Shown here one piece after another: positions 52,013 through 55,863 of a stretch of 64,000 nt of DNA. The notes beneath the pieces are model-generated. The model saw only the letters and a list, made by a program, of their open reading frames with translations, searched no databases and had not been told where the DNA came from. Within the stretch, counting starts at the first letter, position 1; each line of letters begins with the position of its first letter. The stretch comes from Blastocatellia bacterium (GTDB lineage Bacteria; Acidobacteriota; Blastocatellia; UBA7656): assembly GCA_963765495.1 (NCBI GenBank), contig CAVXWP010000001.1, forward strand, positions 512,001 through 576,000, given 5' to 3'. The position numbers and the translations under genes are program-made.

Positions 52013-54700
52013 TCAATCGTCATTCCCGGCGAGGTTGCCGGTTACCCGTGGTTCAACCGCGTTTGATCGCACATCGCCGGGGTTGACTACGCGCACCTGG
52101 AAACTGCCCATACCGTCGATCTTTTTCGCTCCGATGCTTACGGTCAGGCGATCATCCCTGACCTTGACGGGCGTGCTTTGCCTGACGACCGCGCCATCCT
52201 TGACGAACTCTACTATGGCCTGTTTACGGAAGTTTACGCCCTCAATTCGCAGATTCACCTGCGACTCATTTCCCGCGATTGGCTTGATCAGCACGTTATT
52301 GATCTGAGGGCCGACCACCTCAAGCGGTTCTTCGGCTGACGGCACGCCGTCGGCATCTTTGTTGGGATTGACCACCATGAATTTCAGGGTGCCCGGCTGG
52401 GCAAGTAACTGGCCGAGTTCGTCACCCTTGAGCGAAACGACTATTTGATTCTTCTGCCCGTGAAAGCGCACGCGCTTCTTGTCTACGCGAAAAGCCCCGA
52501 CGTTATCCTTGCCCACATAGACGCGCAGGTGTTTCTGGAAGTTCTCTCCGCGAATGTTCACTTTTGCTTCGGAGATACCGGCAAGCACCCGTCCCGGAGT
52601 GACCTCGGTTATTGCCGGCGCGAGGGCGTCGATCTCCATAGGTTCTGAGACGCTGCCGTCGGGGTTGCGAACGACAAACTTTAACTTTCCGGCATCGCGC
52701 GCAAACCGGCCGGGCACGGTCAGTTTCAAGTTCGTATCTGTTGCGTGGCCTATACGGTCGGTTTCAACCGCTATGTCGTTGATCTCTACCTGAGCGCCTT
52801 CGCGGAAGTTTTCGCCTTTTATCCGCATGCGAAAGCTTCCCGCTCCTGCAATCACTTTATCCTCCACAGGCTCAAGCGCGGTTATGCGAGGGCCGTAGAT
52901 GACGAGCGGCTTCTCATTTGAAATGAGGCTCTCCACCGCGAGGTCTTTGACCTGAACGGTAAGCGTTCGGACCCGGCGCGCCTGATTCGCAGGCACTTCG
53001 GCCCGCAACTCGGTGTCGCTCGCGCGCTCGGTGTTGAGAGGCTGATCGCCGACAAATATTGTAGAGCTTGAGCGGAAGTTGCTGCCCGTGACCTTTAAGG
53101 TAAAGGCAGGTGAAGGGCCAGCCACCTCTTCCGGCTTGATCTTATCTATAGTTGGAGCAGTAGCCATCAACACGGTCAGCGGAGCGACCTGTGAAAGCAA
53201 ACCGTCAGGTGATTTCACCTGAACGCTTATGAAGCCGGGAAAATCGAAAAGCTCCTTGTTCAGTTTGGCCTCAAGCCCCTTTCGAACCTGATTGGAGGGC
53301 ACATCCTGGCCGTTGATGACCAGAGTCCCGCCTTCGAGATTTTCGCCCTTTACGAGCACTTTGATGCCTTTCAACCGGCCCTGCTCCACCGTATTGGGCT
53401 TGAGCAACGAAATCACAGGCACCTGAACAGGCGGGGCGGGGTCTTCCTCTTCTTCGCTTACGAGATCGAAATTCACAATGACGACTTCATCGCCGCCTGA
53501 CGAAGAGCGCATAACGGCAAGCGTCCGAGATTCCTTGTTCAGGGCGATGCGGCGAAGCTCGCTTCCGATGTTCTGCGGCGCTTCAAGTTCGCCCGTATCC
53601 GCGTTAAAGGCAAACAACCAGCCGGTGGCCGAGCCTACAAAGGCCGAAGAGCCGTCTTCATCGAATTCGACATTGTTTGCGCGAGAAAAAGTTATATCGC
53701 TTGGCGGCGTGAATTCGGCTTGAATGGCCAGCGCGCCCCCCCGGCTGATAATAGTAGTGACGCCGTTCGATCTGTTATTTGCGGGCCGACTGATAGAGAC
53801 GACCCCGATTATCTCACCGCCTTCGGGGCGCGAGGCCACGCTGATCCTTTGAGGCGCGATGACGCCTATACTCGCAAACTGAGCGCCGCTTTTCGAATCA
53901 ATCGCTATAAGCTGATCGCCGGTCGCGGCAGCAATATATATCGAGCGTCCGCTTGCGCTAAAGACCGGGTTATTAGACTCTTCGAATCGAGCGTCAGACG
54001 GAGTAAAGCTTGCCGAGGAGCTTAACATCCCTTCATCGTCTACCCTGAATATCGAGAGGTGATTTGCCGCCGCGCTCACGATTGCGATTATACGCTTGCC
54101 GCCCTGATCATAAAGAGCCGTCTCCGACGGACGACCGAGAAGCGGCAGTTCAGAGGTAATCTGTCCGGTCTCTATATCGAAACAATAAAGCGCAGGTTCA
54201 TCGAAGCTGGAAGCGATCAGGCAGAATTTGCCGTCGCTTGTAAGTATCGCACGCGTGGAGGGAGTGATGTGCGCGGCTGGCGGCAGCATAAGCAGCGAAT
54301 GCAGGTTGAGCCGGCGGGCGCTTGTCGCGTCAATTATGCTGATTGAAGCCGGGGAACCCTGATCGGGATCGTTTGCCGCCGGGACGGCGATCAAGCGGCG
54401 GTCGCCGAGTTCCACCATCGATAAAGGCCCGATGTTTGTGCCTACGACCATTGACGAGATGAGTTTGCCAGTCTTGAGGCTGAATGAGATGATCGCGCCT
54501 CCCGTCACCGACGAGACGTATCCCACCTTGCCGCCCGAAGCGATCAAAGGCTCGGCCTGCTCGTCGAGTATCGCGTAAGACGGGAGCGTGAGGCTGCGGG
54601 CATCGCGAATCTGCTTATGATTGCTGCTGCCCTGCGCGATGGTAAGGCTGAAGACCATCACGCAAGTTATCAGAGTCGTCAATTTTCTGTTAGGCTTCAA
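52013..54700 (-). CDS. Secreted beta-propeller protein with about five IPT/TIG-like domains
   Basis: Signal peptide; propeller-like blades; repeated P.I....P......V.G.NF motifs. Confidence 0.75.
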   Translation of the reverse strand: MKPNRKLTTLITCVMVFSLTIAQGSSNHKQIRDARSLTLPSYAILDEQAEPLIASGGKVGYVSSVTGGAIISFSLKTGKLISSMVVGTNIGPLSMVELGDRRLIAVPAANDPDQGSPASISIIDATSARRLNLHSLLMLPPAAHITPSTRAILTSDGKFCLIASSFDEPALYCFDIETGQITSELPLLGRPSETALYDQGGKRIIAIVSAAANHLSIFRVDDEGMLSSSASFTPSDARFEESNNPVFSASGRSIYIAAATGDQLIAIDSKSGAQFASIGVIAPQRISVASRPEGGEIIGVVSISRPANNRSNGVTTIISRGGALAIQAEFTPPSDITFSRANNVEFDEDGSSAFVGSATGWLFAFNADTGELEAPQNIGSELRRIALNKESRTLAVMRSSSGGDEVVIVNFDLVSEEEEDPAPPVQVPVISLLKPNTVEQGRLKGIKVLVKGENLEGGTLVINGQDVPSNQVRKGLEAKLNKELFDFPGFISVQVKSPDGLLSQVAPLTVLMATAPTIDKIKPEEVAGPSPAFTLKVTGSNFRSSSTIFVGDQPLNTERASDTELRAEVPANQARRVRTLTVQVKDLAVESLISNEKPLVIYGPRITALEPVEDKVIAGAGSFRMRIKGENFREGAQVEINDIAVETDRIGHATDTNLKLTVPGRFARDAGKLKFVVRNPDGSVSEPMEIDALAPAITEVTPGRVLAGISEAKVNIRGENFQKHLRVYVGKDNVGAFRVDKKRVRFHGQKNQIVVSLKGDELGQLLAQPGTLKFMVVNPNKDADGVPSAEEPLEVVGPQINNVLIKPIAGNESQVNLRIEGVNFRKQAIVEFVKDGAVVRQSTPVKVRDDRLTVSIGAKKIDGMGSFQVRVVNPGDVRSNAVEPRVTGNLAGNDD

Positions 54701-54807
54701 CTGCTATGTCTCCCAAACTCAATATTAAATCTAAATAATACCACGCGCTAAGGTGGGGCGGCGCGTCTTGCTGGCAATCTTATTCTTTTCGCAACATCAG
54801 ATCAAGT

Positions 54808-54910
54808 GATTTTAGATTTTGGATTTTAGATTTTGGATTATGATGAACCATTCCCACCACAGCAGAACCCGGTTTCCGAAATCTAAAATCCAAAATCCAA
54901 AATCTAAAAT
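54808..54910. repeat. Heptamer tandem inverted repeat (GATTTTR / AATCYAA)
   Basis: gattttagattttggattttagattttggatt ... aatctaaaatccaaaatccaaaatctaaaat. Confidence 0.85.
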
Positions 54911-54989
54911 TACAGGCTCTGGTTTTCAACTCAACGCTCATGGCAAAATAGTAGTTCCAGAACTTTGACCCGATTCAGGAGGTAAAGGA

Positions 54990-55427
54990 ATGAGATTTAT
55001 AAACCGCATCTGGCTTTCGGCCCTCATCGCCGTGCTTTTGTGCGGAGCTTTTGCTCTGGCAGGCACGTCCCCGGGGCAGGATGATACCGATAAGGTCGAA
55101 CGCATTTCCGTTGATGAACTCATATTGATGATGGCCAAAAAAAAGCCCGTGACTATCATTGATTCTCGCGTCCTCGACAGTTACGACACAAAGATCAAGG
55201 GGGCGCTGCAAATACCCGTCACTGAAACCGAGGCGCGTCTGAAAGAGATTCCTCGCGACCGCGAGATAGTTACGTACTGTGCCTGACATAACGAAGCTAC
55301 AAGCGCCCGTGCGGCGCAGATACTCCTAGACAACGGCTTTAAGAAGGTACGCGCACTCAAAGGCGGATGGAATGCCTGGGTTCAGGCTGCCGGACAGATA
55401 GAAGATAAGGAAGAGCCTAAACACTGA
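54990..55427 (+). CDS. Exported rhodanese-domain protein, probable selenoprotein (145 aa, UGA at 55284-55286 read as Sec)
   Basis: Frame continues past TGA as YCA(U)HNEATSARAAQILLDNGFKKVRALKGGWNAW..., completing the rhodanese fold; hairpin 16 nt downstream of the TGA. Confidence 0.82.
55287..55319 (+). promoter_or_regulatory. Candidate bacterial SECIS element
   Basis: GCGCC-CGTGC-GGCGC stem-loop (55303-55317) with a GU-containing loop, immediately 3' of the in-frame UGA. Confidence 0.65.
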
Positions 55428-55488
55428 TCACCTTACCGGCTTATCTCGCCGGTAAGCGATGAGCCGGTAAACAGGAAAAACCAGAAAG

Positions 55489-55863
55489 ATGATAATAACA
55501 AACCGCGACCGCGCGCGTGTGATCGCTACCCGTCACGGATCGGAAATTCGCCCGCTGATAGATCGCACGACGAGCGCCATAACTCAGTGCAGCCTTGCCG
55601 AAGAGATTCTTCCGCCGGGCTCGACGGTTACGCCTCATCACCACAACGAGCTTGAAGAGGTTTATTACATCCTCTCAGGCCGGGGGATGATGACGGTAGG
55701 CGACGAATGCCGCGAAGTCGGCTCGGGCGATGCCGTCTATGTTCCGCGAAACCATCGGCACACGCTCGAAAATACGGGCGACGAACCCATCAGATTAATC
55801 CTGGTCTGCGGCCCGGCCTTCTTTTATGAAGATGAAATACTGGAAAGTGATGCGCTCACGTGA
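55489..55863 (+). CDS. Cupin domain protein
   Basis: PHHH...EEVYYILSG.G and GDAVYVP...RH...N motifs. Confidence 0.88.
   Translation: MIITNRDRARVIATRHGSEIRPLIDRTTSAITQCSLAEEILPPGSTVTPHHHNELEEVYYILSGRGMMTVGDECREVGSGDAVYVPRNHRHTLENTGDEPIRLILVCGPAFFYEDEILESDALT

Follow-up and report, generated by a model that had tools for sequence, protein, structure and literature searches.

Does the open reading frame that begins at ATG 54990 of the window (the whole 64,000-nt stretch of Blastocatellia bacterium DNA analyzed here) end at its first in-frame TGA, or is this TGA a selenocysteine (Sec) codon inside a longer gene? In the list of open reading frames, the frame from this ATG stops at TGA 55284-55286, after ...EIVTYCA, and yields 98 aa. 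Beyond that codon, 46 further codons follow in frame (HNEATSARAAQILLDNGFKKVRALKGGWNAW...) up to a second TGA at 55425-55427. When the first TGA is read as U, the gene occupies positions 54990..55427 of the + strand (145 codons plus the stop) and encodes a protein of 145 residues, P0001, which is stored with C replacing U. A Shine-Dalgarno sequence, AGGAGG (54977..54982, + strand), was read from the sequence 7 nt 5' of the ATG, and a purine-rich box in the same position is common to the five closest loci that were aligned. The triplet C-A-U at 55278..55286 (+ strand) is made up of Cys97 (TGT), Ala98 (GCC) and Sec99 (TGA). We consider it highly probable that the gene encodes an intact, exported, single-domain rhodanese of 145 residues, that UGA 55284-55286 is decoded as Sec by way of a hairpin at 55303-55317, and that the protein belongs to the CxU form of rhodanese selenoproteins.

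A preliminary description of this DNA had argued that standard pipelines would truncate such a gene, and the databases bear this out. The gene's own record, P0002, is a 98-aa stub. It was among the 88 proteins that a protein search retained at E ≤ 0.001 from 144 candidates, and 55 of the 87 other proteins likewise stop at YC[A/T/S], 29 have YC[A/T/S]C, and 3 have W at the column of Sec99. Judged by its sequence, the gene is very probably a genuine selenoprotein gene, intact and mis-annotated. The practical value of the finding is one of annotation, since the gene and these 55 database relatives are stored as stubs.

The residues on either side of the UGA read as parts of one rhodanese. The Pfam Rhodanese profile (PF00581) matched residues 40-132 at 2.3e-16 (60.5 bits against a cut-off of 22.2), and both this alignment and that to the NCBIfam model NF041203 span the two sides of the UGA. 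The earlier proposal that the frame runs on past the TGA, through the 46 codons to 55425-55427, to make a 145-aa rhodanese was thus upheld. A profile of 24 family members matched 42 distinct solved sequences at E ≤ 0.001, nearly all of them named rhodanese or sulfurtransferase proteins or domains. An AlphaFold model computed on the same family alignment had a mean pLDDT of 85.8 and a pTM of 0.73, with residues 1-30 of low confidence and forming a lone helix at 7-18. Foldseek returned 149 matches to this model at E ≤ 0.001, all to rhodanese domains, the best being 3tp9_A (2.8e-08).

Cys97 is invariant in alignment A1 and is aligned, in the HMM alignment, to the catalytic Cys of 6pfz. A gap in the latter alignment makes the active-site loop of the family two residues longer than the loop of 6pfz. 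Because Cys97 corresponds to the catalytic Cys and the loop is longer by two residues, Sec99 is placed at +2 within an enlarged active-site loop. The chain past the UGA supplies helix 103-114, strand 120-123 and the invariant pair G125-G126, which constitute the C-terminal half of the rhodanese fold. The Cdc25/Acr2 active site carries the motif C-X5-R. In the window protein, the sixth position past C97 is A103, followed by T104, and the nearest Arg is R107; with no Arg at +6 from C97, an identity as a Cdc25/Acr2 phosphatase or arsenate reductase was rejected.

Among species-representative genomes, 555 relatives were confirmed; codons were tallied in the best 80 of these 555 loci. At the Sec99 column, TGA was found in 33 of the 80 loci, TGC in 31 and TGT in 16, and no TGG, Arg or other codon occurred there. 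That homologs would carry either Cys or TGA in this column, as first suggested, is what these loci display. In all 33 of these TGA loci, the coding frame 3' of the TGA is conserved at the protein level.

The core hairpin of a bacterial SECIS (bSECIS) element lies at 55303..55317 on the + strand and consists of a 5-bp stem (GCGCC/GGCGC) and a 5-nt loop (CGUGC), with a minimum free energy (MFE) of -9.4 kcal/mol. The stem starts 16 nt past the UGA and the apical loop 21 nt past it, and loop positions 2-3 are G-U. In the available text of PMC13188914, the bSECIS criteria comprise an apical loop of 3-9 nt, an upper stem of 4-16 bp, a UGA-to-loop distance of 16-37 nt, a G at loop position 1 or 2, with G or U as the usual next base, and an MFE of ≤ -7.5 kcal/mol. 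The window hairpin falls within every one of these values as they stand in that text, which substantiates the SECIS-like GCGCC-CGUGC-GGCGC hairpin that had been noted 16 nt past the UGA at first inspection.

The hairpin was then compared between Sec and Cys forms. A complete in-register 5-bp stem (offset +19 to +33) is present in 30 of the 34 Sec forms, the window counted, and in 1 of the 47 Cys forms; the remaining 4 Sec forms keep 4 bp of it. The hairpin is contained in the codons for S-A-R-A-A, and conservation at the third positions of these five codons is 85-100% among Sec forms and 36-45% among Cys forms. The local 30-nt MFE was -9.68 kcal/mol in Sec forms versus -7.69 kcal/mol in Cys forms (Mann-Whitney p = 0.003). 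In alignment A2 (34 sequences), 97.5% of the cells are paired in register, as opposed to 21-61% with the pairing partner shifted by 1-3 columns. One stem pair has undergone 5 double-sided changes (from CG to UA three times, to AU once and to GU once), and the observed covariation score was reached by 0 of 500 shuffles. This covariation is thin, with 3 of the 5 stem pairs invariant and an identical 15-mer in 23 of the 34 hairpins, and part of the conservation signal may reflect shared ancestry. From Acidobacteriota to Syntrophales, the hairpin sequence is nearly identical. Since the TGA and the hairpin recur together, in register, in 33 other species-level genomes, their combination is above chance. 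The contrast between Sec and Cys forms serves as a clean natural control and could help to widen the NF041203 model.

Total fold stability was dropped as evidence for Sec, because it was near that of shuffles and did not split Sec from Cys forms; the register-specific test was used instead. Stretches of 62 and 44 nt past the UGA fold no more stably than their shuffles (z = -0.21 and z = -0.44, respectively), and for the 19-nt hairpin alone z was -1.95, with 13 of 200 shuffles folding equally well. Over the 60 nt past the codon, the MFE was even slightly stronger in the Cys forms (-17.3 kcal/mol), which are GC-richer, than in the Sec forms (-15.0 kcal/mol).

The UGA could still act mainly as a real stop, in which case a 98-residue polypeptide would be the chief product and Sec insertion would be minor or selenium-dependent, making the locus a selenium-gated switch instead of a constitutive selenoprotein. 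Sec insertion in bacteria competes with release factor 2, and no stop codon is used more often in the window than TGA, which ends 23 of the 45 stop-to-stop frames with 250 codons or more. The shortness of the hairpin, at 5 bp and -9.4 kcal/mol, points the same way. However, a 98-residue product would be without helix 103-114, strand 120-123 and G125-G126 and could hardly fold, and the 46 codons past the UGA are clearly conserved as protein in all 33 other TGA loci. We consider a predominant stop quite improbable and favor readthrough of the UGA as Sec.

Decoding of the UGA as Sec presupposes selA, selB, selC and selD elsewhere in the genome, as the preliminary description had pointed out, and all of these were found above curated or gathering cut-offs. 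The genome, which is 97.9% complete and comprises 7.3 Mb on 17 contigs, encodes a tRNA-Sec (71.1 bits against a cut-off of 47) to which ARAGORN assigned the anticodon tca (UCA), as well as selB (374 bits against 242), selA (566 bits against 268) and selD (386 bits against 125). Among sampled genomes, selA scored over its cut-off in 5 of 5 with a Sec form and in 3 of 5 with a Cys form; the two Cys-form genomes without selA are Gammaproteobacteria MAGs and possibly incomplete. Outside the window, a second sequence matched the tRNA-Sec model (G000:C1:652371-652451, - strand) at 47.6 bits against the cut-off of 47, and it may be an ordinary long-arm tRNA.

A tree of 81 rhodanese domains (IQ-TREE, 105 columns) left many forks without resolution. 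It placed the window protein in a clade of four, together with L026, L027 and L028, which come from Blastocatellia, Chloracidobacterium and an Acidobacteria MAG; all four are Sec forms, and the clade has a support of 100/92. Over the whole tree, the Sec/Cys label changes 3 times (bootstrap range 2-4), as opposed to about 26 times with shuffled labels. Because the supported clade is entirely Sec and the label changes are few, Sec is ancestral to the window clade and not a recent lesion.

These results bear on the reading of the gene as a pseudogene, in which a codon once for Cys would have mutated to TGA or been misread as such in sequencing. TGC and TGT are each one substitution away from TGA, 47 of the 80 best loci are Cys forms, and gene callers record only a truncated form of the gene (P0002). 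Yet 33 independent genomes of species level have TGA at this column, and all of them retain an intact frame past it and the conserved hairpin; synonymous positions are frozen in the hairpin alone, a pattern that a pseudogene would not keep. The recurrent TGA, the hairpin, the all-Sec clade and the complete Sec machinery effectively refute a nonsense mutation or sequencing error, and we give this reading almost no credence.

Translation of the TGA as Trp or another standard residue, through an alternative code or general suppression, is just as hard to credit: W is recorded at the column in three database relatives, but TGG was found there in 0 of the 80 best loci, TGA terminates 23 of the 45 long window frames and the window gene itself (55425-55427), which excludes a code with TGA as Trp, and selA, selB and selD are free of internal stops. 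An alternative genetic code was rejected on the count of long frames in the window. A non-Cys residue in this column had been named beforehand as a sign against Sec. None occurs in the 80 best DNA loci; the W of the three database proteins is such a residue. Each of the latter is closest to a locus with a verified TGA (P0011 to L028 with 68% identity, P0025 to L048 with 80% and P0033 to L053 with 83%), and for this reason the three W entries probably represent TGA codons that a metagenome gene caller read with table 4. Sec remains our reading of the codon.

The CxU form of rhodanese selenoproteins is already listed in the literature. In the available text of PMC13188914 and PMC9312934, it is credited to Zhang & Gladyshev 2005, Bioinformatics, and goes by the names rhodanese-like selenoprotein 'form 3' and 'COG0607 form 2'. 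As CxU rhodanese selenoproteins have been catalogued since 2005, the window gene is an annotation correction and no discovery. A literature search on NF041203/LYCAU and CxU rhodanese yielded catalogues and reviews, and no experimental selenium incorporation was found by it. The window protein has what defines the CxU form, namely, a rhodanese domain and C97-A98-U99, with C97 aligned with the catalytic Cys.

Its best NCBIfam match is NF041203 (rhodanese_LYCAU, 'rhodanese-related (seleno)protein'), which it matches with 100.3 bits against a cut-off of 115 when U is read as C; the alignment runs over residues 30-140 and profile positions 14-126 of 126. The same model is the best match for all 30 relatives scanned, of which 23 were drawn from the 33 Sec forms and 7 from the 47 Cys forms. 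Their scores form a continuous range of 70-136 bits; 6 of the 23 Sec forms reach the cut-off, and none of the 7 Cys forms does. Because the window protein scores below the cut-off and the scores are continuous, we filed it under the wider CxU form of the literature and not under the NF041203 equivalog. The NCBI model would, for the same shortfall in score, not rescue the annotation.

Like other members of the CxU form and NF041203, the window protein has a single rhodanese domain with Sec two residues past the catalytic Cys, Cys homologs at the same column and a SECIS hairpin directly 3'. It differs from them in its motif, T-Y-C-A-U-H as opposed to the L-Y-C-A-U of the model name, and in lying under the 115-bit cut-off, as do 17 of the 23 scanned Sec-form relatives. 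Its host differs too, being Acidobacteria-like, and its nearest relatives among the best 80 of 555 are from Blastocatellia and Chloracidobacterium MAGs. The window protein is a divergent new member of the CxU form, from an Acidobacteria-like genome.

Other rhodaneses share parts of this arrangement. GlpE and PspE (1gmx and 2jtq) have the same fold, with the catalytic Cys past the central beta-strand, and PspE is periplasmic. Unlike them, the window protein has a loop longer by two residues (measured against 6pfz) and Sec or Cys at +2. An identity as GlpE or PspE was rejected, given scores of 35 versus 102 bits for GlpE and 29.2 versus 102 bits for PspE and a loop that is too long. The rhodanese domains of persulfide reductases and CoADR-RHD proteins (6pfz, 3nta/3ntd, 3icr and 8a56) are among the closest solved relatives; 6pfz was matched by the profile at 6.1e-19, and these domains are close by fold as well. 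They have the rhodanese Cys in common with the window protein, and theirs handles persulfide intermediates. In these enzymes, the domain is joined to a flavoprotein disulfide reductase that serves as electron source, whereas the window domain is stand-alone, predicted to be exported and equipped with a second chalcogen of its own at +2.

According to the available text of PMC13188914, further rhodanese selenoprotein forms are UxxS, UxxG and TsoB, the last with UxxxxU. They have the rhodanese fold and Sec in or near the active-site loop, as does the window protein. In them, Sec lies elsewhere in the loop or replaces the catalytic Cys, whereas the window protein keeps the Cys and has Sec at +2.

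The N-terminus had been described as a signal peptide, and heuristic inspection agrees. After two basic residues come a hydrophobic stretch of 18 residues and A-L-A|G, so that a signal peptide for the Sec translocon is predicted, by heuristic only, at residues 1-24 (54990..55061, + strand), with a putative cleavage site after A-L-A. An N-terminus was scored as signal-like when it had a hydrophobic 11-mer with a Kyte-Doolittle mean of at least 1.8 and one or more K/R among residues 1-12. The window protein has an 11-mer with a mean of 2.76 and 2 K/R within its first 12 residues, and by this simple rule 82 of the 88 family proteins have a signal-like N-terminus. We infer that the window protein is exported, which would add an exported selenoprotein to soil Acidobacteria-like genomes.

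How might the protein be made, and what might it do? The hairpin at 55303-55317 would recruit SelB with Sec-tRNA(Sec), which would insert Sec at UGA 55284-55286; SelB-dependent decoding at the hairpin follows from the sequence evidence combined with the established E. coli model. The same nucleotides double as the code for S-A-R-A-A, the start of the helix past the active-site loop. After export, Cys97 would take up sulfane sulfur or form a mixed disulfide, and Sec99 would act as the resolving nucleophile, giving an intramolecular Cys97-Sec99 selenenylsulfide. The Cys97/Sec99 pair may make the protein a periplasmic catalyst of persulfide, polysulfide or thiol redox reactions and not a plain thiosulfate:cyanide sulfurtransferase. 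This reading of the catalytic role, drawn only from the position of the motif and from the structural neighbors (6pfz, 3nta and 8a56), is tentative, and we judge it plausible but somewhat short of likely.

A broader suggestion is that the CxU/CxC loop marks a class of exported rhodaneses with a mechanism of its own, in which the Cys persulfide would be resolved by the +2 Sec or Cys with release of sulfide. Such proteins would be stand-alone periplasmic reductases of sulfane sulfur (persulfide or polysulfide) or redox relays, with the Sec form traveling as one module. Going by sequence comparisons, we regard this suggestion as speculative and rather unlikely. If it were true, soil Acidobacteria would harbor a strained selenenylsulfide that is recycled by some envelope reductant. 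The near identity, across phyla, of the SECIS in the S-A-R-A-A codons would then mean that the Sec form has spread, or has been held, as a fixed protein-plus-RNA module.

We examined 94 flanking ORFs, from the window and the 33 other Sec-form loci, and found among them no partner general to the family. The gene neighborhood was accordingly rejected as a guide to the pathway, as it is not conserved across the family. In the window, a Cupin_2 gene (55489-55863, + strand, 124 aa) starts 62 nt past the selenoprotein stop. The order rhodanese-then-Cupin_2 is found in the window, L028, L029 and L031 and is absent from the other 30 Sec-form loci; the two genes may form a small operon in this clade, as their arrangement suggests. 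Elsewhere, purK lies upstream in 7 Pyrinomonadaceae-type loci, VWA_2 lies downstream in 7 loci, Pterin-4a dehydratase is found upstream in 4 loci, and Redoxin/AhpC-TSA is near the gene in 2 Syntrophales loci.

Just 5' of the gene, at 54793-54926, 7-nt units (GATTTTA/GATTTTG) and their reverse complements make up two arrays, which together form a 47-nt inverted repeat that is 83% complementary, with arms 40 nt apart. The L026, L029 and L031 orthologs have short-unit tandem arrays of different sequence in the same upstream place. An Rfam scan of 54700-55500 gave no match at the gathering score; sub-threshold matches were to plant and animal microRNA models, fell on the long upstream inverted repeat only, and were taken as generic hairpin artefacts. 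At 54939-54951, about 40 nt 5' of the ATG, is CATGGCA[A/G]AATG, the only block conserved in the six closest loci. TGGCA is part of the consensus of the sigma-54 -24 element. The block includes this TGGCA, and only in L029 is it accompanied by a convincing, correctly spaced -12 GC. From its conservation and position, the block may be a promoter or an operator.

Several of the more distant relatives differ from the window protein in architecture. In proteins of about 320 residues from Pseudomonadota and Thermoanaerobaculia, the rhodanese domain is C-terminal (L067, L070, L078-L080, L084, L085, L089-L092, L096, L097, L099 and L102-L105). The DedA family model is matched by the N-terminal region of L067, the only one for which this was confirmed. 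L102 and L105, as read-through frames, are Sec forms of this long-N-terminus architecture. Read from the sequences, their stem is unlike the one in the stand-alone forms and, with a bulged U, surrounds a CGUGU loop.

Many Pyrinomonadaceae-type Sec forms (L035, L043, L046, L050, L052, L053 and others) carry a low-complexity C-terminal tail of 60-100 residues, rich in Pro, Thr, Ala and Lys and with a basic K/R cluster at its end; no such tail is present in the window protein. Two family paralogs were found in one MAG in the case of L029 (Sec) and L072 (Cys) and in that of L043 and L100 (both Sec).

A second rhodanese gene with an in-frame TGA is present in the same genome, outside the window, at L025:1489-1866 (= G000:C6, around 158229-158546). 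It has C-A-S-P-S-U-H-A-S, with U a putative Sec, and a GC-rich hairpin 3' of the TGA. Its product lacks a signal-like N-terminus and has a His/Lys-rich tail. Its NCBIfam scores lie far under the cut-offs, at 55.4 against 805 for TsoB and 51.7 against 115 for NF041203. In its sequence, this candidate resembles the 'UxxS' rhodanese form of PMC13188914.
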